Source: Takakia lepidozioides
Lineage: Eukaryota; Plantae; Bryophyta
Direction of reading: 5' to 3'
Assembly (NCBI GenBank): GCA_030704615.1
Contig: CM060733.1
Location: 2,480,001 to 2,544,000 of the forward strand
Length of the DNA: 64,000 bases
Each line of letters starts with the position of its first letter. Within the stretch, counting starts at the first letter, position 1. This document shows, piece after piece, positions 1 through 46,297 of the stretch. A program made the position numbers and the translations under genes. The notes under the pieces were generated by a model, which made no database searches, had not been told where the DNA came from, and saw only the letters and a list, made by a program, of their open reading frames with translations.

Positions 1-1654
1 TGATCTACAGTCATCCCTGTTGTAGGTCCAACCTGGCCTTCCGCTGCCAAGATACACAGAAATGCAGATGCATGCCATCCGGGCACCATCTCCTCGTCCG
101 TCTCACCATGCCACCGAGCTCCAGTGTCATCCTGCTGGCTCGTGCATGGATTGCGACTCAACCCATCTGCATTTCGATTGACCAAACCCGGTCGATGCAC
201 CACCTGAAAGTCATACTCTTGAAGGATGAGTGCCCACCGTGCAAGCTTCCCCGTAAGCTTGTCTGACTCCATCAACCACTTGAGTGGTTGGTGATCCGTG
301 ACAAGGGTGAAGAGATTGCCGTATAGATAGCACCTGAAGTGTGCCACGGCCCACACTGCAGCTAAGCATTCTCCCTCATATGAGCTATACTTAGACTCTG
401 CAGCATTGTTCGAGCGACTAGCATAAGCCACTACGAACTCTCTTCCCTCATCATCCACCTGTGTGAGCACCGCTCCAAGCCCCAGCATGCTCCAATCTGT
501 ATGCAGCTGAAAAGGACGCCCCCTGATAGGTCGTCTCAAGATGGGCGCCGAGGTCAACCTCGCCTTGAGCTCTTGAAAAGCTTGTTCTTGCTCATCTTCC
601 CACTGCCACTCCTGGTCCACCTTGGTCAGCTTGGTTAGAGCCTTTGCAATGGCACTAAATCCCTTAACAAACCGTCTGTAATAGTTTGCTAACCCCATGA
701 AAGCTCGAACTCGGCTCACATCCGTGGGACGTGGAACCTGTGCAATGGACTCTACCTTAGTCTGCTGTACCCCCAATCCTCCAGGATATATCATGTGACC
801 CAGGTACTCAATCTGGTTGTGGAAAAACTTGCACTTGCCCGGATGTAACTTCAATCCGTGCGTCCTCAAGCGCTCAAATACCCCCTGAAGGTGTCTCTCA
901 TGCTCCTCCACCGCAGCACTAAAGATGATGATGTCATCTATGTAGCACCGAGCAAACTCCACCCCTGCTAGAATCCTGTCCATGACTCTTTGAAACTCAG
1001 CGGGAGCGTTTTTAAGCCCAAATGGTAAGAACCGCCATGGTATAGGCAATCCTTCCCGTGCTCATTGATCCCCCAGAATGCCGTCTTTTGCTTATCCGCC
1101 TCCTTGATCGGCAACTGGTGATATCCGGATCGTAAATCCAACGTGCTAAAGACCTTGGAATGCCCAATGGCATCAAAGATCTCCTCTGGTGTTGGCATGG
1201 CATACCTATCGGACTTGGTCTGACGATTTACAGGCCGGTAATCACCGCACATACGTCTCTCCGTCCAATTGCCATAGACATCCTTCTTAGCTGGCATCAC
1301 TGTGGCTGAAGCATACTCTCCACCAGAGAGCTCCACCAAACCTGCCTCCCAGAGATCTTGAGTCCTCATCTGAATCAAAGACCTCTCCATGTCACTGTAT
1401 CTATAGGGTCTCCGAAAGATTGGCGTATCAGTGGCCAACTCAATACGGATCTCTTGACCCTTCAGTGCTCCCAAGTCCTTCAAACTGAAGGCAAAGCAAT
1501 TCCTGTAAGCCCTCAGGAACCGCCGTATACGTCGTCTCTCTCCTCCGGTGACAATGGGTCCAATGTCAGGCTCCCAATTGTCCTCCGTAACTGCAACCTT
1601 AAGTCCAGTGGGCTTAGAGGTAGAGGACCCGTCCCGTAGAGGTTCCCGTGGTTG
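1..1654 (-). pseudogene. Gypsy pol (RT + RNase H), in frame with the upstream ORF after one TAG, with a 1-nt frameshift at about 1038
   Basis: 1654-1483 is 171 nt, so this frame matches ORF 968..1483 (RMCGDYRPVN, FSTLDLRSGYHQ). After the frameshift the frame reads WRFLPFGLKNAPAEFQRVMD...CYIDDIIIFS (YIDD at 933-944)...FQLHTDWSMLGLGAVL...YEGECLAAVWA...LVTDHQPL...NADGLSR and stays open to the window edge. Confidence 0.9.
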
Positions 1655-4600
1655 CTATGCTGCAACCTCTTGAGCAGTACCCCCTTCCTGCTCAGTCAAT
1701 GACAAGGCCTCATCCTGCCCCATCATTTCATCATTGAGAACCTCCTCATCCCGAGAAGAATCCCCAACCTCATCCATCACAGCTGCCTTCGCTGCCAACT
1801 CCCTCTGAACCTCGAGCACCTCCCACATGTGCCATGGATGTCTACACCTCGTGGTCCTCACCGGCTCGCCCCCACTCGCTGCCTGTACCGTCTCGGTAGG
1901 CAGAGAGACCGTCAAGGGAAGTGCACTCCGCACTCTACGTTGCTCAGCCATAGCCAAGCTGACAATCCAGGTCAAGCAATTGAGATCCATTGCTTGCCCC
2001 AACACCTGACGACGTGATGCCTCAGAAAGAGAAGGCACCGCCGTGGTCCCAGTGGAAAACCCCATAGCCCGCTCTCGCTCGTCGGCATTAGGCTCCACTA
2101 ACTGCTGCAACTGAGCATCCCACAGGAGGCCAGGTCCACCATCCCGAAAAGCATGGGATCCTGGGAAGCTGAGCAGTGTAGGTAATGCTGCTCGTGGTTG
2201 ACCCACCCTGACCACTGCCAAAGGCGAACGGTCATCGTGTCTCACACGTTGAGACTGCCTTCCTGTGTCCAAAATGCCATCCACGGTGAGGTGTGCTGGC
2301 CGCTGCACCCCATCAAATGCACGCTTGAGCAGTGCGGGTGGCATCAAGTTAGTCCACCATAGTCGTGGACGATGAGCCCGTGACCCCACTGCAGCTGCAT
2401 CCAGCAACACTGCTGACCCAAGCCACGACCGGACTTGATGCACACTGGCCATCACCCTGGCCCGAGAATCACCCATCAGTGGTACATTCTCCAAGATGTA
2501 TGCTGGAGATACAGCTTGATGAAGCTGCAAGCAACGCAAAATCCGCACCATCTCCCAAAACAGACCCGTCCTCGAGTCTCGTAATCCATTGCCATGCCCG
2601 GCTGATGAATGCCCTTGGCAGGGCCAACCTGCCACTATCAGATCAATAGAGCCAACCTGCTCCAAATCTTGCGCCCCCAACAAGGAAATGTCTGCTGGCA
2701 AGGCTTGTTGGTATCCACGAACTGCAGACACAGGCAACAAGTCAGGGTACTGCTGTACCAACTGAGCCACATGGCGCAGTGAGACGCGTCGTGCAGTCTC
2801 ATCCCTCTCCACATACAGGTAACGCCTTACCCGCACACCTGCCTGTAGCACAGCAGCCAATCCGGTGCTGATCCCGCCAAACAAGTCCAGAAGGCAAATG
2901 CCTTCATCCGGCCGCTGCCATACAAGAGGTGTGGTGTCCAATGGCGACAACTGAGGTGGCCCTGGTGCAATCACCGAACTCTCCTCCTCTCCTGACGGTA
3001 CAAAAGCTTCTTCCCAAGCTTGTTGCACCCGTCCATCAGCAGCTTGCTGCAAATCTTTGCTCGTACCCCACAACGGGGTGTGAGCAACCATGGCAGGCAA
3101 CTCCGCCGTACCATGCATGTCATCCTGCTCTGCTGGAGGTGGCACATCCTCTGCATGGGCATTGCCTTCCAGCAACTCTCCAGGCCAACTAACGGCAGCT
3201 GTGAAGGCGGCTAGTGTTGGCATCTGGCCCCGCTGGGCAGCTGCAATACCCCCAATGAATGTCACAGGGAGCTGTGCACGGCGACCATCCCCTGACTGCC
3301 ATCCAGGCCTGTAGGATGCTGACTCCTCCCAGAAATCCAGGGTGAAGCCCATGGGGTATAACACTGCCCCACCAACGAGGACATCGTAAGAGACCGCGTC
3401 TGTCACAATGGCCTTGGCTCGCATCACTGAGCCATCTACAGGATGATCCGGCTGCAGTCTAATAGCCAACTGATGTCGTGTCATGCCGCGAGCCTGCTCT
3501 GATCCTCCCAGAGATGTCTGTATCTGGAAAGGACAAGGCTCCATATCCGCCTCCATGAGGCCCAAACCTGCAATAGCAGCTCTGCCCAACATCAGTGGCT
3601 GAGCTCCTGAGTCCAACAAGACCCGCAGTGGCCGGTACTTCTTGCCTGCCGGTCCACTCAAAGTAAAAATGCCTCCCTGGTTGTCTAACAAGACAACTCC
3701 AGGTGTCACCATGGCGCGCTCAATGGCTGGCCTAGCTGGCAGCTCCGTCAACCTAGCAGCTGCAGCTTGCCAGGGCGCTGCCGTGGCAGTCTTGACCCTC
3801 AAATCCGAGGATCCCTCTGCCACTACACCTTCCACTAACTCCGCAGAAGATGAAGTGACCTCCCCACTCTCACAGAGTGTTGCTGCTAGTCTGAACACTG
3901 CAGCTGGTCTCACCCCCGGCGTCGCAATCATTGTTGCCGAGAACAGTGGGGCCTGACACACAGAGGTGGCTGCCCCCAATAACACACCGGCCGCACTAGC
4001 CTTGGCAGCAGGAGTCAATGCTGCACGTGTAGCTCTCCCCAATGGCATAGTAACCTCCGCCTCGGTAACAGTCGGGCGAGAACTAGGTGCCATGGATGGC
4101 GTTGACACAGTCTCCGCCAATGTGAATGACTGAGGAAGCCTTGCCTGACGGCTTGCCTCCCCACGCTGTGGATCCAATTCCACCTCTGCACCTCGTGGCT
4201 CAGGAACTCGTGCTGCTCCTCGAGTCACGGCTGCAGCAGACTCCACCTGCTCTAGTGGTAGTGCTGCTCCGCACATAAATCCCATGCCTCCCATATCTCC
4301 TCCCTCAGGAGCAGGAGGTGGACCATCCCGCCTGGGAGCCGGTACCGCCTGAGCTATAGCCATGGCAGCGAGCCTCTGCTCTAGCTGCTGAAGCCGGTTG
4401 GCCATGCCTTGATCAACGCCCTGACCTCCGCGTCCTTGGCCATGTTGAGCTTGCCCTTGGCCTGCACCTCGTGCCCGACCACCTCGTCCTCTCTGGGCTG
4501 GTCCACCTCGCCCCCGGCCACCATTGTTCCCTTGGAACTGGCCTGGGCGCAACTCAGGATGCAAGTCATAACACTGGGCATCTCCATGCCCATACTTGCC

Positions 4601-5860
4601 ACAATGCCCACACTGCAACTGTGCAGGCTGTGCTTGTGCCGGCCTTCTGCCACTCTCTGGGCAATCTCTCTTGACATGGGGTCCTCCACATGTCCAACAT
4701 ATCACCCCTGGTTGCTGTTGGCCTGCAAAAGATGCCACGGGCCTCTGCACCTGAGGCCCCCTGTAAGCTCCATGGAACTTGGGCTGGGCAACCTTGCCCC
4801 CCTGACCACGCTGTTGGGCAGTCCCTTGTGCTTGTGGGCTGACAGCTGTGCCCCGTACAGGCATGTCCTTGCCAAATCCAATTGTAACAACTCGTTCCTC
4901 CACCATGTTGAGCTCAATCCGCTCAGCCAGCAGAAACACATCTGCTAATGTGGGTTGGGCTGCTTGTAACAGGGTTGCATCTCGCACCCTTCTCTTGAGC
5001 TCCTTGTCCAGAATTCCATACCAAAACTGGATTGCCTGAGCTTCAGTAACCCCTTGGGTCACACTTATCAAGCGCCTCATACGAGTGTACGCCTCTCGCA
5101 GGCTCTCACTGGGTTTGCGCTGGAAGTCTTGCAAACTTCGCAGCTTCTCTGTCCGTACACCTTGGTAGTTCCTCCGCAACTCCTGGAAGAACTCCACCAC
5201 CGGGTTGAATCTAGGCACATGTGTTGTAGTTGTGGCAGGAGGAGTAGTAGCACCTTCTGAACTGGTACCACCTGCAGAAGTACCAGCACTACCTGCTCCA
5301 CTACTAGTGCTGGCAGTGGGAGCTATTGGTACTGATGCAGCTACTGGTCGCGTCGTGCCTCGAGTAATGGAGATGTAGTCAGGTGACCAATACATCCTCC
5401 ACTCCTCAATCTCTGCTTCATGTCCTCGCCTGAACTCGTGGTAATCGTCCATAGGCGGGCCTTCCAAATGCTGGAACAGTCCCTTCCACGCCATGAATGG
5501 GGTGAATAGATGTGGATTGCGCATCTGCTGCAAATCACACCAGCTGTCGAACTCCTGGATAAAGTCATCCAACTCGATTGTGCCCACCGCTCCAGAGTAC
5601 CTACGAGGCCCCTTGGTAGCTCCATACATCTCCTCCATGTCGTCCCACAACAATGGCGAATGAAAGTGCACACCTGTTGATGAAGCCTCCGAGTCTGTGT
5701 CTGACTCTACAGTAATTGAGGGTGGCGGTGAAGGTGGTCTGAACCGAATACCTCGTCTTGTGAACCCACTCTCACTGTTACTGCCTGTAGCCGTACTCCC
5801 CTCAAAACCCTTGGGTAACTCCGTAATGACACTCACAATGTGCACCTCCTCCAGTGACAC
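1655..5860 (-). CDS. Gag - zinc knuckles - aspartic protease - C5 DNA methyltransferase (DNMT3-like) polyprotein
   Basis: Uninterrupted 1401-codon frame; first ATG at about 5638. Gag core FQRKPSESLREAYTRM; knuckles CWTCGGPHVKRDC and CGHCGKYGHGDAQC; protease LLDSGAQ at about 3602-3620. DNMT at about 1950-2900: LDLFGGISTG (I), DLIVAGWPCQGHS (IV, catalytic PC), YILENVP (VI), RAHRPRLWW (VIII), ERERAMGF (IX), RRQVLGQAM (X). Confidence 0.93.
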   Translation of the reverse strand: MSLEEVHIVSVITELPKGFEGSTATGSNSESGFTRRGIRFRPPSPPPSITVESDTDSEASSTGVHFHSPLLWDDMEEMYGATKGPRRYSGAVGTIELDDFIQEFDSWCDLQQMRNPHLFTPFMAWKGLFQHLEGPPMDDYHEFRRGHEAEIEEWRMYWSPDYISITRGTTRPVAASVPIAPTASTSSGAGSAGTSAGGTSSEGATTPPATTTTHVPRFNPVVEFFQELRRNYQGVRTEKLRSLQDFQRKPSESLREAYTRMRRLISVTQGVTEAQAIQFWYGILDKELKRRVRDATLLQAAQPTLADVFLLAERIELNMVEERVVTIGFGKDMPVRGTAVSPQAQGTAQQRGQGGKVAQPKFHGAYRGPQVQRPVASFAGQQQPGVICWTCGGPHVKRDCPESGRRPAQAQPAQLQCGHCGKYGHGDAQCYDLHPELRPGQFQGNNGGRGRGGPAQRGRGGRARGAGQGQAQHGQGRGGQGVDQGMANRLQQLEQRLAAMAIAQAVPAPRRDGPPPAPEGGDMGGMGFMCGAALPLEQVESAAAVTRGAARVPEPRGAEVELDPQRGEASRQARLPQSFTLAETVSTPSMAPSSRPTVTEAEVTMPLGRATRAALTPAAKASAAGVLLGAATSVCQAPLFSATMIATPGVRPAAVFRLAATLCESGEVTSSSAELVEGVVAEGSSDLRVKTATAAPWQAAAARLTELPARPAIERAMVTPGVVLLDNQGGIFTLSGPAGKKYRPLRVLLDSGAQPLMLGRAAIAGLGLMEADMEPCPFQIQTSLGGSEQARGMTRHQLAIRLQPDHPVDGSVMRAKAIVTDAVSYDVLVGGAVLYPMGFTLDFWEESASYRPGWQSGDGRRAQLPVTFIGGIAAAQRGQMPTLAAFTAAVSWPGELLEGNAHAEDVPPPAEQDDMHGTAELPAMVAHTPLWGTSKDLQQAADGRVQQAWEEAFVPSGEEESSVIAPGPPQLSPLDTTPLVWQRPDEGICLLDLFGGISTGLAAVLQAGVRVRRYLYVERDETARRVSLRHVAQLVQQYPDLLPVSAVRGYQQALPADISLLGAQDLEQVGSIDLIVAGWPCQGHSSAGHGNGLRDSRTGLFWEMVRILRCLQLHQAVSPAYILENVPLMGDSRARVMASVHQVRSWLGSAVLLDAAAVGSRAHRPRLWWTNLMPPALLKRAFDGVQRPAHLTVDGILDTGRQSQRVRHDDRSPLAVVRVGQPRAALPTLLSFPGSHAFRDGGPGLLWDAQLQQLVEPNADERERAMGFSTGTTAVPSLSEASRRQVLGQAMDLNCLTWIVSLAMAEQRRVRSALPLTVSLPTETVQAASGGEPVRTTRCRHPWHMWEVLEVQRELAAKAAVMDEVGDSSRDEEVLNDEMMGQDEALSLTEQEGGTAQEVAA

Positions 5861-6371
5861 TATAAGGCTCTAGTACTAATCTAATAGTGACACGGGTGGG
5901 CACCTGTTGCAGTCTAAGGGTCATATCCCAGTGGCTCAGGGCACCTGCACCTGCATCCACCGCAAGAACTCCTATGGTTGGCTGGTCATCAACCCAGCCT
6001 CACCATAGAAGAAACACTGGTGGTCTTGCTGGTCATCACTCCAGCCTCACCACCGACAGCATACTCTAGGATTGACCGGTGATCAAATCCGGCCTAATCC
6101 CTATGAAAGCAAGCGCCCACACAAAACCAACATGGCGCACAGTCAAGCATGCAGGTGTTGGGGGGATCCAAACACAAGAAATCAAAACATCAACACCCCC
6201 ACACCAAAATCCAGCTGCAATGCTGATCCTGCAGAATATCCCAGCCCAAAACCCCGGACTGACTGGCCTCCACCAAGAGAGGCTTTGGCAACTACAAGTA
6301 TAAGGTAATGAAAATAGTACAGAGATGGAGGGGAAGAATAGAAGCCCGCCCAAGCAAGATCTAACCCTGAT

Positions 6372-7208
6372 CTATGCTATCAACTTCCAGACTTCTCTCA
6401 AAGTACCTCGCTCTGCTTGATGGTAAGGTGTAGGAGGTATATCTATGTCCAGAAACCTGCCACTAACCTTGTCCCAAGCTACAGTAGCTCGCTCTAACCA
6501 ACCCTCCTCCTCTTTCTGCCAGGTAGAGACAAAGCAACACTCTGCTATCTCCCGCTCACTGAACACTAAAGAAAACAAAGGTAGGGTCTGATAGTCTCTC
6601 AACTCGAAAGCTTTGAGACGGTTGCGGGTGTCTTCATTGCGAATGACTGCATCGCCTTCAAACAGAACAAACTTGTCCTCGCTAATGAACCCCCGCTCGT
6701 GGTTGCCTTGTGCAGAGCGTGTCCGACTGCAACACTGTCTAATTGCACAAACTTGTGCAGCTCCTGCTCCTCTGCTCCAGTACACCACGGCCTTGTGGCT
6801 GAACACCTTGGTCCCCGGTGCTGTCTTTGGCTGTGTTCCAAGCCTAGCTTTCACCCACTTTGGTATTTCACCTACAGCTGCAGAACTGCTGGCTCCAACA
6901 GAGTTCTGACTGTCCAAGGCGATATTGAGGCCCTCAATGCCAACTACAGCAGTCTGTTGTCTACTGCTAATGCCTGACTCCCAGTATGCAATCAACTCGT
7001 CCAACTGTTCTCCACTCAAATCAGTCTGAGTTCCTTGGGAAACATAAATCCTGTCCCCTTGTGTGCACAGGCTAAGAGAAGAGACCTGCCCTTCAATTAC
7101 GTCCTCATTTCCCCCAGCCATGCAAGGAGTACATCCACAGGTTTGTCTCTCATATAGGCCAGCACAGGTTCTAGAAACAGGATTGTGGATATTTCGTGGC
7201 ACACTCAC
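6372..7208 (-). CDS. Accessory ORF upstream of gag in the DNMT-Gypsy element; function unknown
   Basis: 278-codon open frame (GTG start; first ATG gives MAGGNEDV...) on the same strand as gag and about 500 bp upstream of it. No recognisable domain. Confidence 0.5.
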   Translation of the reverse strand: MSVPRNIHNPVSRTCAGLYERQTCGCTPCMAGGNEDVIEGQVSSLSLCTQGDRIYVSQGTQTDLSGEQLDELIAYWESGISSRQQTAVVGIEGLNIALDSQNSVGASSSAAVGEIPKWVKARLGTQPKTAPGTKVFSHKAVVYWSRGAGAAQVCAIRQCCSRTRSAQGNHERGFISEDKFVLFEGDAVIRNEDTRNRLKAFELRDYQTLPLFSLVFSEREIAECCFVSTWQKEEEGWLERATVAWDKVSGRFLDIDIPPTPYHQAERGTLREVWKLIA

Positions 7209-7383
7209 ACTCTAAAAATTCCATAGATTTTTAGCAGAGTCCCAAAAACAGAAACCAGGTCTAGATAGGTAGATTTCCCCTTTCTGCAGCTATCCCCTCA
7301 AAAACTGTGTCAAACAGAGTTCATTTGCCAAAGATATGACCAATTAGGCTCTAAATCCTTTAACTTAGATCAAAAGGGTTTTT

Positions 7384-7415
<32 letters not shown>

Positions 7416-7441
7416 TTCAAATTTAAAAATTCAAAGGAAGG

Positions 7442-7537
7442 TGAGAAGCTCTTTGGAAACTTCCCCTATCCTTACATGCTTTTCCACCTGGGTCATGCTT
7501 TCTCCCTGCATGGGGTGGAATTTGCATATGCTTATCA
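7442..7537. repeat. Candidate very short (96 bp) LTR or terminal segment of the DNMT-Gypsy
   Basis: Bounded by TG...CA with 8-bp imperfect inverted termini (TGAGAAGC ... GCTTATCA) and has an internal hairpin (ttccacc/ggtggaa). Host-gene-derived sequence starts immediately after 7537. The partner LTR is not in the window. Confidence 0.4.
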
Positions 7538-7610
7538 GCGTTGGAGAGGGCGGCAAGAGCGGACGTACTGATTGCGGGCGTACAGAGCTGAAGGATGGGC
7601 TTTAGGGGCT

Positions 7611-7685
7611 ATGGCGGCTGTCTCAATGCAGGTTGTAGCGGAAGTCTCCTGCTCGACTCTGTGGCAGTCGGGCTTTCTGGCGGGT
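7611..7685 (+). pseudogene. 5' fragment of an unknown gene with a plastid transit-peptide-like start
   Basis: [25 protein letters not shown], preceded by UTR-like sequence and fused abruptly to the antisense RPL8 fragment. Confidence 0.3.
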
Positions 7686-7884
7686 TCCAATGTGCAGATG
7701 GTTACCACCTCCATGGGGATGCTCAACAGGGTTCATGGCCACACCCCGCACCTTAGTCCAGCTATTGCGCTTCACCTTGTACTTGTGATATGCACACCTT
7801 CAGCATAGTCTTCTCTGTTCGGCCCCTTCCAGCAACCTGCCCTACCATCGCTCGGCATCCGCTTGGTATAACCTTCTTTGCTCC
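7686..7884 (-). pseudogene. RPL8: 60S ribosomal protein L8 (uL2) C-terminal fragment with an indel
   Basis: [29 protein letters not shown] / [35 protein letters not shown] is the uL2 signature. Confidence 0.9.
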
Positions 7885-7953
7885 CTTAGTGAGAAGGATG
7901 TATCTTTTGTGCTCGTTGCATTTCGTGTCCAATTACTCCATCTACGTTGAGGA

Positions 7954-8256
7954 TCAAAGAGAAAGCAACGACACCTGCTCGTCAAGCGAGCACTCAACAC
8001 AGCACGAAGTGCGGCAGCGAGCTGGAATGAGCACAAGGCCCAGGCTACGTTGTTCCATAGGCGGGGGCTCCTTCATCACTGATGCAGAGGGGCCAGGAAT
8101 TTGCCTGAACTCCAGAGTGTCATACAAAATTATGTTCCCTTGTTTGTCCAGACAATGAAATTTCTCCACAAACACTCGTCCGTCCTCTACTCCCACACGC
8201 AGCCTGCGATACAGAAGCTTCCGCGCCCGCTTCACAATGGGCTTCACCGTCTCCAC
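7954..8256 (-). pseudogene. NAA38: NatC auxiliary subunit NAA38/MAK31 (Sm-like) captured copy; no ATG visible
   Basis: RKLLYRRLRVGVEDGRVFVEKFHCLDKQGNIILYDTLEFR...EQRSLGLVLIPARCRTSCCVECSLDEQVSLLSL matches the plant NAA38/LSMD1 Sm fold. The usual Gly in the Sm1 motif is replaced by Glu. Confidence 0.75.
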
Positions 8257-8343
8257 TCCCTGCTCCTCCTGCTTCTCTTCTCTACCTTCTTCTGCTGCAG
8301 CCGTCCACTTTGTTGGAGTAGGATCCCCTCCTCGGGTCGAAGG

Positions 8344-8806
<463 letters not shown>

Positions 8807-8844
8807 TCATGCAGGAAGCAACAGCCTGCCCCACAGCCCGCCTC

Positions 8845-9050
8845 ATGGCTACCGCTCTCCGGTGCAACGTCCAGCAATGCTTCCAGCCACCTCAGACTGC
8901 CATCAACTCACCGAAGTTGCGCATGAGGAAAATCGCTCCTGCAAAAAGCGCCTCTGCTCGCAACAACCTCAAGTGTGCAGCCAGCTTCTCCTCATCTCCA
9001 CTGCCCACTGCTTCTTCAATTTCGGAAAGGCAGTCGCAGCCATGCTTGCT
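8845..9050 (+). pseudogene. 5' fragment of an unknown plastid-targeted gene (transit-peptide-like)
   Basis: MATALRCNVQQCFQPPQTAINSPKLRMRKIAPAKSASARNNLKCAASFSSSP is Ser/Ala/basic-rich and lacks acidic residues. Confidence 0.35.
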
Positions 9051-9501
9051 GGATTGCACCGACTCCCTCTTTGTCTATCCTCTTTGTTTATTGCTGCAAC
9101 TTGACCCCATTCTCAGATATAGCCACATGTTGACAAAAATTGCAGCAACATCTCAAGCCTCCCGTTCTGCTCCCCGTGACCAAGCTATATTATAATAGTG
9201 CTTAAAAAACAAAAACATCATATCTAGCTTAGCACTGGAAAACTAGATAGAGCTCATCTTTCTCGAGTGATAGAAAACCAACGAACACACTGGTTACACA
9301 AAACATGAAAACCAAACCATCACTCTTTAAAACAGTAGTCGAGCCAGGGGCACCCCAAGCTATGGGGACTCCACCCCACAACAACCTACACTCCCATCAT
9401 GAGTACACTCAGACCTAAACGCATGCAGGAGTTCGGTCGCGCAGGCTCAACTCGAGAAAGATGAGCCGCGCGACTGCCGCTCTCGTGAAGATAAGACGGA
9501 C

Positions 9502-9574
9502 CAGGTGTCAAACTAAACTTGACACCTGATTTAACACTTGACCTAAATCCAAGTGTTAAATACAAATAACTAGT
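9502..9574 (+). mobile_element. Helitron-like 3' terminus (two hairpins, then CTAG|T)
   Basis: Stems are caggtgtcaa/ttgacacctg (9502-9528) and atttaacacttg/caagtgttaaat (9529-9561). CTAG at 9570-9573 follows 8 nt later and is followed by T. Confidence 0.5.
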
Positions 9575-10654
9575 TTTATTCTAGCTGTTTTCACACTGTG
9601 CTTATTTAACTTGACAAGCTGCTCAAATTATATTTTAAAAAAAACTGATTTTTGAGAATCATCGTCATTTCCATGTTACTATCGCCACGTCATCTTCGTC
9701 ATTTTTAAGCTGCCCAAGGAAAAAAAACTGAATTTTGAAAATCTTTTCTGCAAATCTGCTGTAATATCGTTTTTTTTTTTTTTCTTCACACGTTCACTGT
9801 AAATGTTACAACACTTATAGTATTACTTATGACAAAACCACGAAACAGAAATCGATTGGTATGCCCAATTTCGAAAACCATCACAAGTTCAATTCTTTGG
9901 TTTGTGGTAAGCACGTTTCAAATTTATTAATATAGCACATAGGATATATATGTAGTAATAATTTAAAAAAAATCAAGATTCTTAATTTAGATTTATCTCT
10001 TATTTATATTTTGGATAATTATAAACAAAAATTCAAAAGTAAATACAACTACTAAGCATCCAACTACGATTGTAAAAAATGAAATGAAAACACCATTGAA
10101 TTTCATAAAACCTATGACGAAATACTAGACAAAAATTTGTTTGTTAAACGCAAACGATTTCGATGGACAAATGAATTAAACATTAAACTTCTTGAAATTT
10201 CTCAAAACAATATAAATGTAACTGCTCAAAACATAAATAAACTATTTGTGGATTCATATCCAAACTTCGATTGAATTCTAAACAAGTATACCATCATTTG
10301 TAAATTTCAATAAAACATGAAGACACGATAATAACATTTCTTCCATAAAACTAGCCAAATCATCAACAAATTGAATGATATAAATGCACACAACATTAAT
10401 AATGTACCAACACATGACTTCCATGGACACAATAATAAACCAAAAAATCAAAAAGCATTTTGATTTGAAAATATAATTTGATGAAATTTTAATTAATGTA
10501 ATCAAATATGTTCTCATCAAACAATTAAAAAAATAACTTATACATTTATAGCATCTCAAGATCAGTTGATATTAATTTGAAAATAAATTTATAGACATAT
10601 AAGCGTATGACGGAATCAACATAAAATAAAGTCAAAGTAAAATATTAATGAAAT

Positions 10655-19100: not shown

Positions 19101-19750
19101 TCCAGCCCAGCCAGTTCCGAGCGGTGTCCCTCCATGTGAAGCCCTCGCAAAATTTCAAGAATGGATCGAATTGTTGAGCTCGTGCTGGGAATATGACTCC
19201 CTCGTCCGCTGATGTCCATTGAGGACTTGCCTGATCTCCAGGATGATCTTGGAACTTCCATGACCTCGTCTGAGTCGGACAGGTTGTGAACAACCCGGTT
19301 CTCGCTCGTCTTCATTGATGGGTTCGGCTCTGGATTTACTTTGTTGCGGACTTCTCTCTTTGAGGTACCCACTCTCTTATTCGCGGATTGTTTCGTGGAA
19401 GGCGCCAGGATAGAAGGCGCATTTGGCGGGCAAATGAAGTCCCCAACAGCTTTGTATATGACGTTGTCCGATGGTGGAACTCGCCATTCCCTGCCGTCGC
19501 CAAAATCATCGTGGAGCACAACAATACTTTCGACTACAACTCCATTTGAGTCCTTCCTTTCCTCCTCCAAAAATACCGACCCCGGTTTCAAGTGGTATCG
19601 AACACAGAGATATTTCTCCATCACCCAGCAGATCTCCCATCTGCACGGAAATGTAGCTCTATGCTCGTGAGGAGGGCAGTACACTATAGCGCTCGGGTTT
19701 TCTGTCATGAGAGATGTGCACACAAGACTGCCAGGACAGCGTTCGGGCAA
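16130..19750 (-). pseudogene. MULE-type transposase: WRKY-GCM1-like Zn finger + DDE domain + SWIM; disrupted, with at least one intron (about 17470-17634)
   Basis: Zn finger CAGALRC...CNAK...RACIHVGSHCH; MULE D..D..CxxH core WVMFDHIKR...TIAICEMKGDD / GFMADNAQANW / ERSCGFHFLQSL; SWIM PTCNCTDF...PCKHLYYIY. Confidence 0.75.
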
Positions 19751-21077
19751 GCGCCCTGGGAGAAGGGGGGATGCAGTGAGGGAAAGGAATGTAGGGCCGA
19801 TTTTTCCGAGCGACGAAGCCTATTCACGAATCCGGGGAGCCCACTCTCCCAAAAATCCACTGTCAGAGTGTTAATGAACCTTGTCTCCGGAATGCAGCCC
19901 CTGGCCTTTGCGCACTAATTGCCAACGGTATGCAGTCAAAAGGTATATGACCTGTGCAGATGTGCTGCGCAAACCTATAATTACGGCGTCTGACAAGAAG
20001 CGTGGGGGGGCGAGCGTGCAAGCACCTTCCCCATGGACAGAGGGAACTGACAAAGGTGGCATTCCAGTGGGTCTGATTGCAACAAAATGCAACATTGCGC
20101 AAAAAGTGGAACTTTGGTTCAAAGGAGATATTTTTATTAATAATGAACTGTGACAAGTATGCATGCCCTCACAAGCCGAGGGAAGCCAAAAGTATGCATG
20201 CCATCCATGCTCAGGTAAGTTGGGAATTTTCTCCCGTGTTGCACTATTCTCACGAAGCTGGAACCTCGATTGGCCTCTCAACAAGCTCATGACTGATAGG
20301 ATGTCGGTAGGTAAAGACAATGGATGCAGCCCGTTCTCATTTGGTGTAGTGGACAACGGTGTCATGTCCTTCGATATATGCACCATCGTAAATCGAGATC
20401 TTTGTTGTGGAGACTTTGTGTCCATAGGACTCATCCTCGTAGCTTATGAGAATGTCCCCATACACTGTTTGCGATGGAATCCTCTCTGGCATGTACGTAC
20501 ACCCAATGCAATCCTCGTAGGCCCACTGGCAACACCTCCAATGATGTAGGAAGGTCGTGCGGCTTTTGGGGATGTTCCATGTAGGCGGATAGTGCAGATC
20601 AACGATTCGCAGGCACCAAAGCCGCGCAAGCCCGTCCCCGTGAGGCTGATCGTGGAAGGCCAGGAAGGTACTCAAGAGCGGACAGGTGCACCCTCTTCTG
20701 CTGAGAGGGGTCTATCAATCCTACAGGTATATAAAAATATCCCCTGACTTGGGCGAGAAGTCCCACGGGGTGAGATGCTTGTTTGGGCAGTTGCTAGGAT
20801 CCCGGCACGCCATCGCCGACTACTGAAAGGGCTGCCAGGAAGCAGAGAGGGTGCGCAGGGAAGGGGGAGTGTGGGGAAGATGAAGTGAGAGAAGCTCGGA
20901 GCGAGGAAGTGTTGTTGTTGTCTCCGTTTGAAACGCGTGGGTCACGAGCGAAGGTCGGGCAAGTGGCAAAGCAAAAGAGCAGCATTTAATATAACCGTAA
21001 CCAGGAATGAGGCGCAGAATTTACTTCGACATGACGTCCAATCGGAGGGTGATGGCCCCATGTGCCTGCCAAAGAAC

Positions 21078-38030: not shown

Positions 38031-38662
38031 TGTCACGGACATAGCCCAGAAGAACTTATCAGGAGTAAATACCAGAAGTTACCAAGTTACCATGTTACCG
38101 AAAATTACTATGACTTACCATAATTTACCATGATCTACCATGATTTACCATTACTTACCAAGTTACCGGGTGTTTACCAAATTACCAAGAGTAACTTGAG
38201 AAACTACTCAGGAAGCTTCCTTTGGAGGAAACTTCTCCATCAAGATACCTCCTTTGTTTAAGGAAGCTTCTCCATCAATAAATCTTTGTTTAATCTTGGA
38301 AACTTCTCCAACAAGAAACCTCCATAGGGGAAGCTACTTAGGGAAGCTTCTTAGTAGCCAGTATATATAGGAGGCGAGACGGGACACTCTTCAGTCTCGC
38401 CAACACCAGTTCAAGTTACTCTTATTTCCAGTTCCCAGTACTCTAGCCCAATTTCCAGTATCTGGTACTCCAGTCCAGTTTCCAGCATTCCAGTATTCAA
38501 GTCGTGTTCCAATATCTTGTACTCTTGTTCATTGTTAAAAAGATCGTCTTGATTTCTATTTATTCATCGTGGATTCGGCCACGCCGACCTTGACTACTTG
38601 TCTAGCATTGTACCTCTAGTTTTATCTCTTGTTTGTGTTCAGTCATGTTCTCGTCCTTGACA
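38031..38662 (+). repeat. 5' LTR (632 bp)
   Basis: TG...CA termini, TATA at 38362-38369, and a close match to 45711-46297. Confidence 0.95.
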
Positions 38663-38664
38663 GT

Positions 38665-38675
38665 TTGGCGAGACT
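38665..38675 (+). promoter_or_regulatory. Non-tRNA, self-priming primer binding site
   Basis: TTGGCGAGACT is the exact reverse complement of AGTCTCGCCAA (38393-38403), about 24 nt downstream of the LTR TATA box. Confidence 0.75.
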
Positions 38676-38700
38676 AAAGTTTGTTCTTTAGTTAGTTAAG

Positions 38701-39738
38701 ATGGAAGGCACATTTGCGGAAATGGTCACCACATTGCAGAGTCTTCAACTCCAGATGCAAGAACTTCGTACATCTACCGCCCAATTGCAAGCTGATTAGT
38801 CTCAAGATCTTGGCAACGCTCTCTACAATTTGCAACAACAAATTTCAGAGTTAAAAGAGTCGAACAATGGATCTTCAACCATACGAGTCCCTACTGCAAC
38901 AGCTCCTACTGCAACGGTTCCTCTTCAACAGATTACGAGAGAACCAAATATCAGCATGCCCGAGAAATTTGATGGGACGAGATCAAGATTTCGCGGTTTT
39001 GTTCAACAAGTACGACTGTTCCTACGATTACATCCACAACGCTACCCCGATGAAGGTATTCAAGTGGGATTCGTGGGCACCCTTCTATCAGGCACTGCCC
39101 TATCTTGGTTTGCACCGCTATTAGAAAAAAATTCGCATTTACTATATAATTTTGAAGCATTCATGTCCGAGTTCACTGCAATGTTTGGAGAAAATGATAG
39201 AGAGAGAGTTGCAGAAACAAAGATGCAAAATCTTCGACAATGATCACGTCTTGCTTCCGTTTATGCTGCCGAATTTCGACAACTTGCGTGCGACCTCGAC
39301 TGGAATGAGAAGAGCCTCATTAGTCAGTTTCGATGTGGACTAAAAGATGATGTAAAAGATTTGTTGCTGACAATGCCAAACGTGAGCACCCTGAGTGAAT
39401 TCATCACCCAAGTCATTACATGCAATCGTTTGTTCGAAAGACGTCAAGAGAAGCGATCTGGATGGTCGACGACGCATCATGTCACTGCTACTACGACACC
39501 AAATACAACGATCCATCAGACATCCAGTAGTGATCCTATGCAGATTGATGTTGTCCGATTCAAACCATTGACGCCACAAGAAAAACAAAGACGGCGCTCG
39601 AATGGATTATGCCTCTATTTCGGAGAAGAAGATCACATAGCCTTAAACTGCCCCAACAAGAGAAGATTCAAAGCTCGGGGCACAACTCAAATGTTCGATA
39701 CGAGGAGGTCGGAAAACGACGATGTCCAGTCACAGTAG
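38701..39738 (+). pseudogene. Chromovirus gag, with stops
   Basis: PEKFDGTRSRFRGFVQQV, LLSGTALSWF, DPMQID, and a degenerate CCHC GLCLYFGEEDHIALNCP. Confidence 0.88.
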
Positions 39739-39755
39739 GGACCATGCGGCTGGAC
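39711..39755 (+). promoter_or_regulatory. -1 ribosomal frameshift signal at the gag/pol overlap
   Basis: Slippery G_GAA_AAC (39711-39717), a 6-nt spacer and the stem gtccagtcaca/tgcggctggac. The -1 frame reads GKRRCPVTVGT into the protease. Confidence 0.7.
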
Positions 39756-41860
39756 GCCACAAATTTCTTACCGAAAAAAAATCTTTTTCTACCTCCAGAC
39801 CCTACACCTTGCTTCATAGTTCCAATAAAAATCAGAATGCAAAATCGAGATATCGTTGTAGAAGCACTTTTGGACTCAGGAGCTTCAGCTTGTTTTATGG
39901 ACAAAAACTTTGCGACGCAACACAATTTAACGCTCGTAAAGAAGAAATTTTCGGCCCCCGTTGAAGTCATCGATGGACGACCGTTAGCATCAGGAAATGT
40001 GGACCATGAAACTCGACCACTTGAAGTGAAGCTTAAAGATCAAGCATCACATATTGTTTTCAATGTCATCCAGTCTCCAATGAATCCTGTGATCCTTGAA
40101 CTTCCCTGGTTCATATTTCACAATCCCGACATCGACTGGTGATCGCGAAAAAATTCTGCAAGACAAAAATGTAGAAATATCAAAGGTACTCAACCCCTAT
40201 TCCTTGGAGCTAGAGCTTTCATGAGAGCTACAAAAAAGGAGGCGGTATTTGCACTTTATGCGACTCCGATCAAGACCACAACAGACAAATGTACTTCAAC
40301 ATTACCCGCTTAATATCAAGATTTCAAAGATGTCTTCGAGAAGAAAAATGCAGACATGTTGCCAGAACATCGACCTTATGACTGTGCAATTGAGTTACAA
40401 GAAGGAGCCCAACCACCATTCGGCCCAATCTATAACTTATCCCAGACGGAGTTGGCTGCATTACATGAATACATTGATGAAAATTTGTCGAAGCACTTCA
40501 TCCAACATTCAAAATCACTTGCGGGGTCGCCTATCTTGTTTGTGAAAAAGAAGGACGGATCATTACGCATGTGTGTCGACTATCGCGGTCTCAACAATGT
40601 TACAATCAAGAATCGTTATTCGTTGCCGCTGATTTCTGGGCTTCTCGACCAGCTAGGACGAGCGAAGATTTTCACCAAAATCGACTTGAGATGAGCCTAT
40701 AACCTTGTACGGATAAAAGAATGAGACGAATGGAAAACAACTTTTTGAACAAGGTATGGACATTTTGAATACAATGTTATGCCTTTCGGTCTTACCAATG
40801 CTCCAACAATTTTTCAACATATGATGAATGACATCTTTCGAGAATTTTAGATGACTTTGTAGTCATTTATTTGGACGACATTTTGATATTTTCACAGAAT
40901 GAAGAAAAACATGGCCGCCATGTACGCCTTGTCCTTGAAAAATTAAGAGAAAGAGGACTATATACCAAGTTGGAGAAATGTCTTTTTCATCAATCTGAGG
41001 TCGAATTTCTGGGCTACATTATTTCCGACAAAGACGTCTTTATGGATCAGAAGAAAATACAAACCATCATCGAGTGAATTAAACCAACTTCGGTCCGAGA
41101 TGTACAATGTTTTCTGGGCTTTGCAAATTCTATAGAATCTTCATCAATGACTACTCCAAAATTGCTGCACCGTTGACACGACTCACAGGGAAGGACAAAA
41201 TTTGTATGGGACGAGAAGGCTGACCAGACATTTGAAAGGCTGAAGCAAGCATTTACAACGGCTCCAATACTGGTACATGCAGACCCATCTAAACCATTCT
41301 TCTTAGAAGCAGATGCATCGGACTTTGCACTTGGCGCGGTACTCTCGCAATACGGTACAGATGGCCGACTCCACCCTGTTGGTTTTCGTTCTCGCAAATT
41401 TTCCGCTGCGGGGATCAATTATGAAATCCATGACAAAGAACTTCTAGCGATTATCGATGCTTTTGAGGAGTGACGACATCTATTGGATGGAGCTAAACAT
41501 CAGGTCACTATCTATACCGATCACAAAAACCTCGAATATTTTATGAGTGCTCGTGTTTTGAATCGACGTCAAGCGAGATGGAGTATGTCACTAGCAAGGT
41601 TTGATTTTGTTATTACCTACCGTCCCGGACATCTTCAAGGAAAACCAAATGCTCTTTCTCGACGATCGTATCTTGCGCCAAAAGAAGGGGATGCAGTTTT
41701 TGACCAACAAAAATTCATTATCTTGAAACCAGCAAATCTCCAATTGAATATGCTATCCATGTCTATCTATGACGATGCAGAGATCATAAAGGAGATTCAG
41801 GAAGCACTAAAGAGCGATCATTTTGCTACGACACTACGAAGTCAACTAAATCAACTTCGA

Positions 41861-43731
41861 ATTGGACACCACACCGATCATGAGGCAGTGTCCGGATGAA
41901 GGCATTTGCCTTCTAGACTTGTTTGGCGGGATCAACACTGGATTGGCTGCTGTTCTACAGGCAGGTGTACGGGTACGGCGTTACCTGTATGTGGAGAGGG
42001 ATGAGACTGCACGACGCGTCTCCCTACGCCATGTTGCTCAGTTGGTGCAGCAGTACCTTGAGTTGTTGCCTGTGTCTGCAGTTCGTGGATATCAGTAGGC
42101 CTTGCCAGCAGACATTTCGTTGCTGGGGGCGCAGGATTTGGAGCGGGTTGGCTTCATTGATTTGGTAGTGGCAGGTTGGCCCTGCCAAGGGCATTCATCA
42201 GCCGGGCATGGCAATGGATTGCGAGACTCGAGGTCGGGTCTGTTTTGGGAGATGGTGCGGGTTTTGCGCCACTTGCAGCTTCATCAAGCTATATCTCCAG
42301 CATACATCTTGGAGAATGTGCCATTGATGGGCAATTCTCGGGCCAGGGTGATGGCCAGTGTGCATCAAGTCCGGTTGTGGCTTGGGTCAGAAGTGTTGCT
42401 GGATGCAGCTGCAGTGGGATCACGGGCTCATCGTCCACGGTTATGGTGGACTAACTTGATGCCACCCGCACTGCTTAAGCGTGCATTTGATGGGGTGCAG
42501 CGGCCAACACACCTCACAGTGGATAGCACTCTGGATACAGGGAGGCAGTCTCAACGTGTGAGACACGATGACCGTTCACTTTTGGCAATGGTCAACAAGG
42601 TGGGTCGACCACGAGTAGCACTACCTACACTGCTCAGCTTCCCAAGATCGCATGCTTTCCGGGATAACGGACCTGGCCTCCTGTGGGATGCTCAGTTGCA
42701 GCAGTTAGTGGAGCCTAATGCCGACGAGTGAGAGCGGGCTATGGGTTTTTTCACTGGGACCACGGCGGTGCCTTCTCTTTCTGAGGCATCACGTCGTCAG
42801 GTATTGGGACAAGCGATGGATATAAATTGCTTGACCTGGATTATCAGCTTGACTATGGCTGAGTAATGTAGAGTGCGGAGTGCACTTCCCTAAACGGTCT
42901 CTCTGCCTACCGAGACGGTACAGGCAGTGAGTGGGGGCGAGCCGGTGAGGACCACGGGGTGTAGACATCCATGGCACACATGGGATGTGCTCGAGGCTCA
43001 TAGGGAGTTGGCAGCCAGGGCGGCTGTGATGGATGAGGTTGGGGATTTTTCTCGGGTTGAGGAAGTCCACGAAAATGGGGCAAGATGAGGCTTTGTCATT
43101 GACTGAGCAGGCAGGGAATACTGCTCAAGAGGTTGCAACATAACAACCACTGGACGCGTCCTCTACCTCTAAGCCCACTGGACTTAAGGTTGCAGTTACG
43201 GAGGACAATTGGGAGCCTAACATTGGACCCATTGTCACGGGAGGCGATAAACGACGTATACGGCGGTTCCTGAGGGCTTACAGGAATTGCTTTGCCTTCA
43301 GTTTGAATGGACTTGGGAGCACTGAAGGGTCAAGAGATTCGTATTGACTTGGCCACTGACACGCCAATCTTTCGAAGACCCTATAGATACAGTGACATGG
43401 ACAGGTCTTTGATTCAGATGAGGACTCAAGATCTCTGGGAGGCTGGTTTGGTGGAGCTCTCTGGTGGAGAGTATGCTTCAGCCACAGTGATGCTAGCCAA
43501 GAAGGATGTCTATGGCAATTGGACGGAGAGACGTATGTGCGGTGATTACCGGCCTGTAAATCGTCAGACCAAGTCCGATAAGTATGCCATGCCAACACCA
43601 GGAAGAGATCTTTGATGCCATCGGGCATGCTAAGGTCTTTAGCACTTTGGATTTACGATCCGGATATCACCAGTTGTCGATCAAAGAGGCGGACAAACAG
43701 CAGACAACATTTTGGGGGATCAATGAGCACG
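41861..43731 (+). pseudogene. Internal DNMT + RT N-terminal fragment from the DNMT-Gypsy family, inserted between RNase H and integrase
   Basis: Homologous to minus strand 2942 to about 1058 (LDTTP...[12 protein letters not shown]...WPCQGHS...ENVP...RPRLWW...FWGINEH). It has no LTR and carries several stops and indels. Confidence 0.93.
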
Positions 43732-45253
43732 ACAACCCACATGTTACAAACGACTTCGAATTCAAAGATGGCTTACTTTACTTCAAGGGACTTCTCTATG
43801 TACCTCCAGGACCTACGCGACTTCGAATTCTTCAAACATGTCATGATCTTCCGGCTGCAGGACATTTCGGCTTCAACAAAACATTGGAGTTGATATCCAG
43901 GGACTATTGGTGGCCGCAGATGTGGAAACTCGTGAAAGAATTCATAAAATCTTGTGACACGTGTGCTAAAGCGAAGGGACCACGACATCGACCTTACAGC
44001 CTTCTTCAACCATTACCCATTCCCGAGGGTCCATGGTCGTCCGTGTCTATGGACTTTATTACGGACCTTCCAATTTCCAAGACCACCGATTCAATCCTTG
44101 TTATTGTAGATCGTTTTACGAAGATGACACATTTCATTCCATATAATAAGACGGTTACCGGCGAGGAAACTGCAAGACTCTTCCTCAATAATATCTACCG
44201 CATTCATGGACTCCCGAAGGACATCGTATCTGATCGAGGACCACAGTTCATATCAAATTTCTGGAGGGGATTATTTCACATATTGGATACTAAGATCAAC
44301 CTCTCTACAACTAATCATCCACAAACTGATGGTCAAACCGAACGTGTAAACCAGATTTTGGAGCAGTATCTTCGCTGTACGATAAATTATCACCAAGATA
44401 ATTGGACGGACCTTCTGTTATTGGCTGAGTTTGCCTATAATAACAATATACGTTCTTCGACCAAGCAAACTCCATTTTTCTCCAATTATGGTCATCATCC
44501 TTGAGCAAACCATTTCCACATAAAGACTGTTGGAAGCCCTGCTGAAGAAAACCTTGCTACTCATCTAGCTACGATTCACAAGGAGCTTACATCTCACCTC
44601 GCAGAAGCTCAAAAACAATACAAGGAGTATGCAGATCAACGTCGCCAACTCCAACCCCAGTTCAAGGTCGGAGATCGTGTGTGGCTTCTTCAACGAGAGA
44701 TACAAACCTCGTGACCATCAAGGAAGTTGGATTATCAACGCCTGGGACCATTCAAAATTATTCGACAAATAAATCCAGTCAGTTTTCGGCTTGAACTCCC
44801 ACGAAGTATGCGCATCCATCCAGTCTTTCATGTTTCATTATTGGAGTTGTATCATCCATCGAATATTCCAGGGAGAGTCTCCGTACCACCTCCATTAGTC
44901 GAAGTCAATCAAGAACTTGAGTATGAAGTCGACGAAGTCCTAGACTCTTGCATCAAGTATAAACGTCTTGAGTATTTCATACATTGGAAAGGCTATGACA
45001 TCAGCGAACAAACGTGAGAACCTTCATCCAACCTCGCTAATGCATCTGATAAAGTCCAAGAGTTTCATCAATGATATCCAGCTAAGCCCCGAGCTACACG
45101 TCAATAAGACGTCACAACGATGATGTCCGTCAAGTTAGCTTCAAGGTGAAGACTCCACATTCAATGTACCTGATACACGCTAAAGAGAGAAGAGCCCCAC
45201 ACATCAGTATATATAGCTACACTTCCAACACTCTTGCATCTTGTATTGGCAGT

Positions 45254-45655
45254 ATGGAGTCACAAGAACCAGATACATTGGAGTTGTCGCTTACCCAGCT
45301 ACCAGATCAGCCATTCCGACTCTCACGACCTTTAACATCACGCCGACGCTCTCGAGACGATGGGCCACCAATGCGACGCGTACTTCCTCGTCTGAACCCC
45401 GAACGACGGCAAGTGGAGCCTACTCGAAGTCTGATAATTTTGTTGGAGGTTGAGGCTTCGGACCCAGAGGGCAACGAAATCATGTTTGAAGGCAACTTTG
45501 AAAATCAGAATGCTCAAATCACTGCGTGGTCCCAAGTTCAAGGTGTTGGACACTATCGATGATTGCAGGGACCTATAAATCATTTGAGTCAAGAACGAAG
45601 AGCCGAATACTTGGCAAGAACCATTCGTCGGATTTTGGATTTTCTCCAACTCTAA
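45254..45655 (+). CDS. Extra ORF between the chromodomain and the PPT (one internal TGA at 45560)
   Basis: MESQEPDTLEL...GVGHYR*LQGPINHL...LDFLQL*, preceded by its own TATA-like tatatata at about 45208. Confidence 0.4.
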
Positions 45656-45710
45656 GCAAGTCCAAGATTTTACCGCTCCTCGAGGAACTCGGCGCTAGAG
45701 GAGGGAATGA

Positions 45711-46297
45711 TGTCACGGACATAGCCCAGAAGAACTTACCAGGAATAAATACCAGAAGTTATCAAAAGTTACCATGACTTACCATGATTTACCATTACTT
45801 ACCAAGTTATCGGGGGTTTACCAAATTACCAAGAGTAACTTAGGAAACTACTCAAGAAGCTTCATTTGGAGGAAACTTCTCCATCAAGATACCTCCTTTG
45901 TTTAAGGAAGCTTCTCCATCAATAAACCTTTGTTTAATCTTGGAAACTTCTCCAGCAAGAAACCTCCATAGGGGAAGCTACTTGGGGAAGCTTCTTAGTA
46001 GCCAATATATATAGGAGGCGAGACTGGACACTCTTCAGTCTCGCCAACACCAGTTCAAGCTACTCCAGTCCAGTTCCCAGTACTCTAGCTCAATTTCCAG
46101 TATCTGGTACTCCAGTCCAGTTTCCAGCATTCCAGTATTCAAGTCGTGTTCCAATATATTGTACTCTTGTTCATTGTTAAAAAGATCGTCTTGATTCCTA
46201 TTTACTCATCGTGCATTCAGCCACGCCGACCTTGACTTCTTGTCTAGCATTATACCTCTAGTTTTATCTCTTGTTTGTGTTGTTCTCGTCCTTGACA
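45711..46297 (+). repeat. 3' LTR (587 bp)
   Basis: Preceded by the PPT agaggagggaatga. It differs from the 5' LTR by substitutions and by indels, including in the ttaccatga micro-array. Confidence 0.95.

Follow-up and report, generated by a model that had tools for sequence, protein, structure and literature searches.

A 64,000-nucleotide stretch of the Takakia lepidozioides genome (assembly GCA_030704615.1, contig CM060733.1, forward-strand positions 2,480,001 to 2,544,000; hereafter the window, in whose coordinates all positions are given) carries a Ty3/Gypsy-type retrotransposon, the broken moss member of a family whose Gag-protease frame ends in a DNMT3-like cytosine methyltransferase (DNMT). 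Judging from the sequence, a structural model and analogy with known systems, we favor, with a probability of roughly 0.55, the reading that the DNMT would be packaged together with Gag and would methylate new cDNA before it is inserted. The family is most likely the land-plant form of a kind of element already known from algae.

The first frame ends in a DNMT3-like methyltransferase domain

The first open reading frame (ORF1; 1655..5869, minus strand) runs for 1404 codons from stop to stop and ends in TAG; from its first Met, at 5638, it would encode 1327 amino acids. A sequence-only reading of the window had placed the DNMT between protease and reverse transcriptase (RT) in one uninterrupted frame; the frame is real, but the RT lies past the TAG. 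ORF1 opens with a Gag region carrying two CCHC-type zinc knuckles (4571..5638, knuckles at 4699-4661 and 4612-4571, minus strand), assigned from Pfam and from reading of the sequence: the Retrotrans_gag match (E=0.006) is under the Pfam cut-off, and the region is 52-64% identical to the Gag region of loci that we label Sphagnum-like for their 78-90% identity to a named Sphagnum protein. An aspartyl protease follows (3260..3724, minus strand), recognized by its motif LLDSGA at 3619-3602; the homologous region of a related locus, L021, matches Asp_protease_2 (E=2e-4).

The C5 cytosine methyltransferase domain (1910..2914, minus strand) holds motifs I (LFGGISTG, 2884-2861), IV (GWPCQ, 2629-2615), VI (ILENV, 2497-2483), VIII (AHRPRLWW, 2377-2354) and X (LGQAMD, 2002-1985), all on the minus strand, with motifs II (YVERD) and IX (ERERAMGF) also in their canonical place. 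The complete, non-permuted domain claimed from sequence alone is therefore upheld, every motif quoted for it being in canonical order, and PF00145 matches it at E=1.3e-12, exceeding the Pfam cut-off. Among solved structures compared by sequence, DNMT3A was the best match (E=7e-11), followed by DNMT3B/C, DRM (7.6e-6) and HhaI (4e-4). An AlphaFold model built from a 22-sequence alignment (A1) had a pLDDT of 86 and a pTM of 0.89. The top rows of a Foldseek search with this model were all DNMT3, with DNMT3A/B best (E=9e-19), and the model aligned to DNMT3B (6kda) with Z 27.4 and a root-mean-square deviation of 2.7 over 271 aligned positions; among bacterial enzymes, M.MpeI scored Z 24.3 and HhaI 23.1. 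Identity to DNMT3A/B in the structural alignments is 20-26%. In alignment A1, G98, W99, P100, C101, Q102, E144, N145, R184 and R186 are invariant or at least 90% conserved across the 22 sequences, down to 38% identity. DRM aligns to residues 6-132 only, and its circularly permuted order is absent from the window domain; since motifs I-X stand in canonical order, the domain is not a DRM. Sequence, modeled fold and motif order agree with the earlier assignment of the domain as DNMT3-like rather than DRM-like. Its C-terminal tail past motif X is 109 residues long, and 92-94 residues long in the named Marchantia and Calypogeia proteins. We also considered a viral or phage origin of the DNMT and rejected it, as the best such matches reached 25-45% identity over partial lengths and offered no close donor.

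The family is found in mosses and liverworts and is under purifying selection

The identity of the host was read from a BAH-TFIIS gene exon in the window (60279..61280, plus strand; PF01426), which is 64-66% identical to Sphagnum and Ceratodon and 53-59% identical to liverworts, ferns and lycophytes. In a tree of positions 60390-61190 (25 rows, 24 of them chosen from 120 listed matches), the exon grouped with Sphagnum and Ceratodon in the moss clade with support of 100/100. By this gene the contig belongs to a moss, and the land-plant host proposed from sequence alone holds.

Relatives of the DNMT at 60-76% identity were found in Marchantia, Calypogeia, Riccia and Sphagnum. Those named among the matches listed come from Marchantia polymorpha, M. 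paleacea, Calypogeia fissa, Riccia sorocarpa and three Sphagnum species, and the Marchantia, Calypogeia and Sphagnum relatives sit on chromosome-scale records. More distant relatives occur in Closterium and Scenedesmus. Host plant DNMT3s were not among the matches listed for the window DNMT, and no Klebsormidium sequence was among the named ones.

A profile search with the DNMT returned 584 clusters at E up to 1e-30, the best 150 of which were used. Two architectures were present among them, one with the DNMT after the protease and the other with the DNMT between RNase H and integrase. An unrooted FastTree phylogeny of 147 retrotransposon DNMT domains only, all near-full-length and of classifiable architecture, separated the two by a single branch (45 versus 102 rows, support 99). 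Based on 20 proteins looked up, the 45-row side holds the window copy, bryophyte sequences and Closterium, whose element has the same domain order as that of the window, and the 102-row side holds Scenedesmus. Descent from streptophyte algae would account for these sequences most simply, though a tree without a root does not establish it. The set with the order RT-RNase H-DNMT-integrase-PHD is large and diverse, including P0338, P0297, P0160 and P0161, and one member is named from the chlorophyte Scenedesmus; we found no description of chlorophyte Gypsy-DNMT3-like elements in the portions of the literature available to us.

To characterize the family, we gathered 80 related metagenome loci, across which the order Gag-protease-DNMT-RT-RNase H-integrase-PHD recurs. 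The second frame (ORF2) of L021 is closest to Ty3 Gag-Pol (E=4e-98); its protease-RT-RNase H-integrase order is as in Ty3/Gypsy, and it has rve and integrase zinc-finger matches and no recombinase match. The ratio of nonsynonymous to synonymous substitution rates (dN/dS) of the DNMT was 0.086-0.109 between the window and four Sphagnum-like loci and 0.229 between the window and L031, with dS of 2.0-2.6 and thus near saturation. It was 0.136 and 0.122 among the distant L021, L022 and L031, and 0.249 between the window element and a second copy in the window (41861-43731); the RT gave 0.05-0.20 for the same pairs. By these ratios, 0.09-0.25 for the DNMT, the family is under purifying selection with its methyltransferase included.

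A conserved stop of readthrough type separates DNMT from RT

The TAG at 1657-1655 closes ORF1, and the RT continues in the same frame; with the bases that follow it, this in-frame stop forms a conserved context of readthrough type, TAG CAA CCA (1649..1657, minus strand), for whose 9 bases no variant was listed in four runs. Of the related loci, 55 span the junction from the end of the DNMT to the beginning of the RT, and 45 of these, plus both window copies, carry TAG or TAA in frame right before the RT, with CAR YY after it; the same CARYY context was found at only 11 of 1073 decay stops. Many of the 55 loci are near-copies, so that the number of independent lineages is nearer four, with the post-stop hexamers CAA CCA (Takakia), CAA CCC, CAG TTA and CAA TCA. 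In L021, two open frames of 1369 and 1047 codons are joined by TAG CAG TTA. The window, L021, L022 and L031 have an exact CARYYA and no nearby ATG after the stop. The moss element shares this hexanucleotide context with tobacco mosaic virus (TMV), in which UAG followed by CAR YYA is reported to drive ~10% readthrough (PMC2754532). By sequence and by this analogy, readthrough is likely at the DNMT-RT stop and would place the DNMT on the abundant Gag side; with the RT behind a conserved leaky context, the DNMT likely travels with Gag.

The window copy is dead, with its first frame well preserved

ORF2 begins within the window (1..1654, minus strand) with RT and RNase H, recognized by RVT_1 and RT_RNaseH matches on two frames. 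The window ends before the integrase, whereas in relatives ORF2 goes on into integrase and PHD. The RT changes frame near 1037, and near 2208 the DNMT lacks one codon that its relatives have. With these defects the copy is dead, but its first frame is well preserved. The earlier description of the element as intact applies to the DNMT motifs but not to the copy, which has, besides the RT frameshift and the missing DNMT codon, an insertion in its leader.

This insertion (7378..9204, minus strand) is single-copy and contains a decayed piece of a ribosomal protein uL2 (L8) retrocopy with an A-rich tail (PF03947 on 7626-7799, E=2e-10); a weak LSM match (E=0.011) lies upstream of the uL2 piece. Summed contig depth in run X1, which we use as a sign of repetitiveness and not of copy number, was 9,000-43,000 over 1-7291 and 8-28 over 7609-9193, and climbed again at 9194-9500. 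The DNMT element is clearly repetitive in Takakia. The high-depth part of the leader also holds an extra open frame of 249 amino acids from its Met (6372..7121, minus strand), for which we found no Pfam family, no counterpart in the 80 related loci and no usable Atlas match; its own predicted structure had a pLDDT of 33.

Beyond the retrocopy, and separated by it from the rest of the element, lies the putative 5' end, a half-repeat that we call A (9252..9616, minus strand, with a TGTCA start at 9616), assigned from the geometry it shares with relatives. A 17-bp perfect inverted pair within it (9466-9450 and 9268-9252) forms a predicted self-priming stem. Such a pair arose in 0 of 1000 shuffles, and its offsets within A are +151/+349 in the window and +164/+339 in the Sphagnum-like L036, with different letters. 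In L021 and L031, whose contigs lack the 5' end, no such stem could be located. The A sequences of the window and of its relatives do not align significantly (score 31; best shuffle 44), and we infer the 5' end at 9252-9616 on this footing.

Split repeats and a PHD-tipped integrase in the relatives

The relatives do not have a full long terminal repeat (LTR) at each end. Their layouts are A-coding-B (6 distinct) and A-coding-B-gc-A-B (5 distinct, one cut by a contig end), where B is the other half-repeat. Sphagnum-like loci start with TGTCA and end with CGACA or TGACA. Among 15 5' ends with 13 distinct flanks, 14 begin with TGTCA and 1 with TCTCA, and none is preceded by B. Exact 4-bp target duplications were present in all four distinct insertions with both ends; TG...CA ends with duplications of 4-6 bp are what Ty3/Gypsy elements show. 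The spacer between B and A measures 2 bases in independent insertions and is not a 4-bp duplication.

A purine tract stands directly before the first B, and in the relatives' stem a region downstream of a TATA-like box pairs with the bases just after A. From tract and stem together, the reverse-transcribed LTR would be B-gc-A, and the ends used by the integrase would lie at an internal palindrome, GACA-gc-TGTC, inside U3 and ~115 bases from the LTR start. The core of this palindrome recurs in the distant L021 and L031. Joining of the cDNA ends followed by a cut at the palindrome would yield A-coding-B-A-B, and in all 4 distinct clean cases the A|B joint is the one expected from the two predicted cDNA ends. 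The split repeats thus suggest that a circle is the integrating form and that it is cut at the palindrome within the LTR. A rearranged copy with an inverted internal segment was also observed in L026 (4923-5819), whose A|B joint retains ~11 bases of primer-site sequence; this joint may represent a circle junction that kept its primer, an auto-integration or an internal deletion.

The integrase of the relatives ends in a PHD finger, the nearest solved fingers being those of CHD4, PHF12, PHF21A, KDM5 and UHRF1. Neither this finger, nor the split repeats, nor the conserved DNMT-RT stop had been picked up in the sequence-only reading. PHD fingers of these types read unmethylated H3 tails. Self-priming of reverse transcription is known from Tf1. 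Neumann et al. predicted it for Tcn1 (PMC6317226).

How the DNMT may be used

In the reading we favor, most ribosomes would stop after the DNMT, and a minority would read through the CARYY-flanked stop, adding RT, RNase H, integrase and PHD. The DNMT would enter the particle with Gag, in likely excess over the RT, and the protease may release it. Reverse transcription would be self-primed by the 5' RNA stem, giving a cDNA whose LTR is B-gc-A, and the DNMT would likely methylate this fresh double-stranded DNA before insertion. The cDNA ends would be joined into a circle, which the DDE integrase would cut at the palindrome GACA-gc-TGTC in the LTR, producing A-coding-B-A-B. Finally, the PHD may guide the element to chromatin whose H3K4 is unmethylated, and an insert that arrives already methylated would blend in there. 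Symbiodinium retrotransposon DNMT3s are reported to methylate CG de novo (PMC5890265).

Several observations weigh against this reading. First, in yeast the Klebsormidium domain produced no methylation, although human DNMT3B failed there too (PMC5890265). Second, the element's CpG depletion, at 0.36 of expectation, is matched in host exons (0.34-0.51) and in another retroelement (0.41). CpG observed/expected is 0.32-0.65 in the element and its relatives and 0.9 in a chromovirus in the window; since host exons and the other retroelement are equally CpG-poor, we rejected the depletion as a specific footprint of self-methylation. Third, the DNMT lies between RNase H and integrase in 102 of the 147 tree rows, and DNMT and RT share one frame in the algal relatives P0354, P0451, P0456 and P0457, layouts which mean that Gag-level dosage of the DNMT is not universal. 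Fourth, the in-frame stop signal is absent from 10 of the 55 loci (1 off frame and 9 without it, mostly heavily decayed), and in the Sphagnum-like loci the stop is followed by CAA CCC, which differs from CARYYA by one base, and then by an ATG, an arrangement that reinitiation would also fit. Fifth, the mirror form A-B-A-coding-B expected from a symmetric circle was seen in 0 of the 13 distinct 5' ends, for which the circle model gives no account. Lastly, the element's 3' end lies beyond the window, so that the priming, circle and PHD steps draw mostly on the relatives.

Alternatively, the DNMT may be active mainly outside the particle, on genomic copies, the insertion site or host chromatin, and so limit or tune the element's own expression. 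The abundant side of the stop would supply more enzyme than one cDNA needs, and de Mendoza et al. name self-limitation among the possible roles (PMC5890265). We nevertheless consider this unlikely, as the Pfam search found no targeting domain on ORF1, the PHD being on the integrase instead, and the DNMT's place inside Pol next to the integrase in the 102-row group points to the cDNA. It is more doubtful still that the element keeps the domain to bind DNA or RNA or for protection in the particle and not for methyl transfer: Gag-level stoichiometry would suit a structural role, and the Klebsormidium homologue was inactive in yeast (PMC5890265), but across the 22 aligned sequences the S-adenosylmethionine-binding and catalytic positions are either invariant or conserved to at least 90%.

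A further alternative concerns the steps around the DNMT, with ORF2 expressed by reinitiation or splicing and the split repeats made by a short A-B unit inserting at element ends instead of by circles. Reinitiation could use the ATG found two codons past the stop in most Sphagnum-like loci, but the window, L021, L022 and L031, all with the exact CARYYA, have no ATG there. An A-B unit would account for the missing mirror form and for the one ambiguous A|B junction in L026; against it, the B|A spacer is 2 bases with no 4-bp duplication, and the A|B joint fits the predicted cDNA ends in every clean case. We hold this combination to be improbable. That the contig is algal or a contaminant, or the DNMT a neutrally evolving passenger insertion, is very improbable despite close algal relatives and phage methyltransferases at 27-30% identity, given the host gene's place in the moss clade (100/100), relatives on chromosome-scale Marchantia, Calypogeia and Sphagnum records, the low dN/dS and the DNMT's fixed place in the polyprotein.

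Relation to known elements

The closest described system is KnitGypsy-Dnmt3 of Klebsormidium nitens, for which a figure legend gives DIRS-like repeats (de Mendoza et al. 2018, PMC5890265). As in the moss family, a non-permuted Dnmt3-type domain with conserved catalytic residues lies in a Gypsy polyprotein under purifying selection. The moss family's relatives also share its DIRS-like repeats (A-coding-B-A-B) on a Gypsy domain set, of which the window has the putative A only. Compared by description, the moss family differs in its land-plant host and probably in a DNMT that ends the Gag-protease frame at a conserved leaky-type stop instead of lying within one Pol frame; the integrase PHD, self-priming stem and 4-bp duplications of its relatives are unmentioned in the accessible text on KnitGypsy-Dnmt3. 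SymbioDIRS-Dnmt3, which was shown to methylate CG in yeast, is likewise a retrotransposon-borne Dnmt3 with split direct repeats, but it uses a tyrosine recombinase, whereas the moss family's relatives have a DDE integrase and target duplications (PMC5890265). Host plant DNMT3 (PpDNMT3b; Yaari et al. 2019, PMC6453930) and animal DNMT3A/B share with the moss DNMT the canonical motif order and the closest solved fold; unlike them, the moss DNMT is intronless and embedded in a polyprotein. The integrase of foamy virus, also of the DDE type, cleaves palindromes in 2-LTR circles (PMC1180852), but the moss family's palindrome is inside U3 and not at the LTR-LTR joint, and its inserted copies are themselves permuted. 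Troyka (PMC12440569), as far as its available text describes it, is unrelated to the moss element and was set aside.

In the literature we found, DNMT-carrying retrotransposons are described only in algae and none in land plants, though supplements beyond those texts may list bryophyte copies; no description was found there of a leaky DNMT-RT stop or of a circle integration route. Two sources whose accessible text says "streptophytes" (PMC12344493 and bioRxiv 10.64898/2026.05.21.726589) may include bryophyte sequences in their trees. Because the family ranges widely among mosses and liverworts, and some of its algal relatives share its domain order, it is, by sequence, most likely a land-plant branch of the KnitGypsy-Dnmt3 kind and not an isolated land-plant invention.

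A second DNMT fragment and other features of the window

The second copy (41861..43731, plus strand) comprises DNMT, tail, a TAA CAA CCA junction and 5' RT, and its arms are 89-97% complementary to the first element. It had been taken as showing a family; the family is real, as the 80 loci and named relatives attest, but this copy is a decayed 1.9-kb fragment, with 4 stops within the DNMT match as well as frameshifts, lodged in an unrelated element between its RNase H and its integrase. That element, possibly Tcn1-like, is a decayed chromodomain-bearing Gypsy element (a chromovirus) with ordinary LTRs (38031..46297, plus strand; gag, protease and integrase Pfam matches). Its LTR pair has 29 mismatches and 3 gaps over 633 columns, its chromodomain was read by eye near 44920-45030, and its RT-RNase H is 33% identical to that of the DNMT element. 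The fragment's left junction has a 4-nt microhomology and is out of frame; at the right, the RT piece is in frame with the host integrase. Its site between RNase H and integrase is also the DNMT position in the second, algal architecture. Possibly the fragment records a transfer of modules in progress, although its left side is out of frame.

Elsewhere in the window we noted decayed Mutator-like transposase pieces with a weak SWIM match (16130-19819, minus strand), decayed RT-like frames without a Pfam match that look Penelope-like by eye (48431-50443, minus strand), decayed tandem PPR repeats of PLS type, broken by many stops and frameshifts and also read by eye (52000-54800, minus strand), and two tandem arrays, one of a 96-bp unit open in several frames (21032-21693) and the other of a ~70-95-bp unit with a TGTGTGTCCCACAC core (34603-35478).

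Implications

Why retrotransposons keep an enzyme that normally silences them has been asked since 2018, but the hosts known so far do not lend themselves easily to manipulation. In Marchantia polymorpha the relatives Mp4g09160, Mp8g17980 and Mp6g11220 pass for ordinary hypothetical genes in the annotation. They bring the question within reach of a genetic model, and they caution that transposon copies can be counted among bryophyte DNMTs. The leaky stop predicts how much of the enzyme is made, and a DDE integrase that leaves split repeats and 4-bp duplications would seem to integrate by a route so far unexplained. Tentatively, and as a possibility that we would not yet back, the elements may belong to a Viridiplantae-wide Gypsy lineage, recently alive in mosses and liverworts, that would combine a readthrough-dosed active DNMT3 and methylation of its own cDNA with DDE integration from a two-LTR circle and PHD guidance to H3K4-unmethylated chromatin. 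If so, this would be a retroelement that both writes and reads host chromatin marks, using a circular intermediate that is considered a dead end for DDE integrases.

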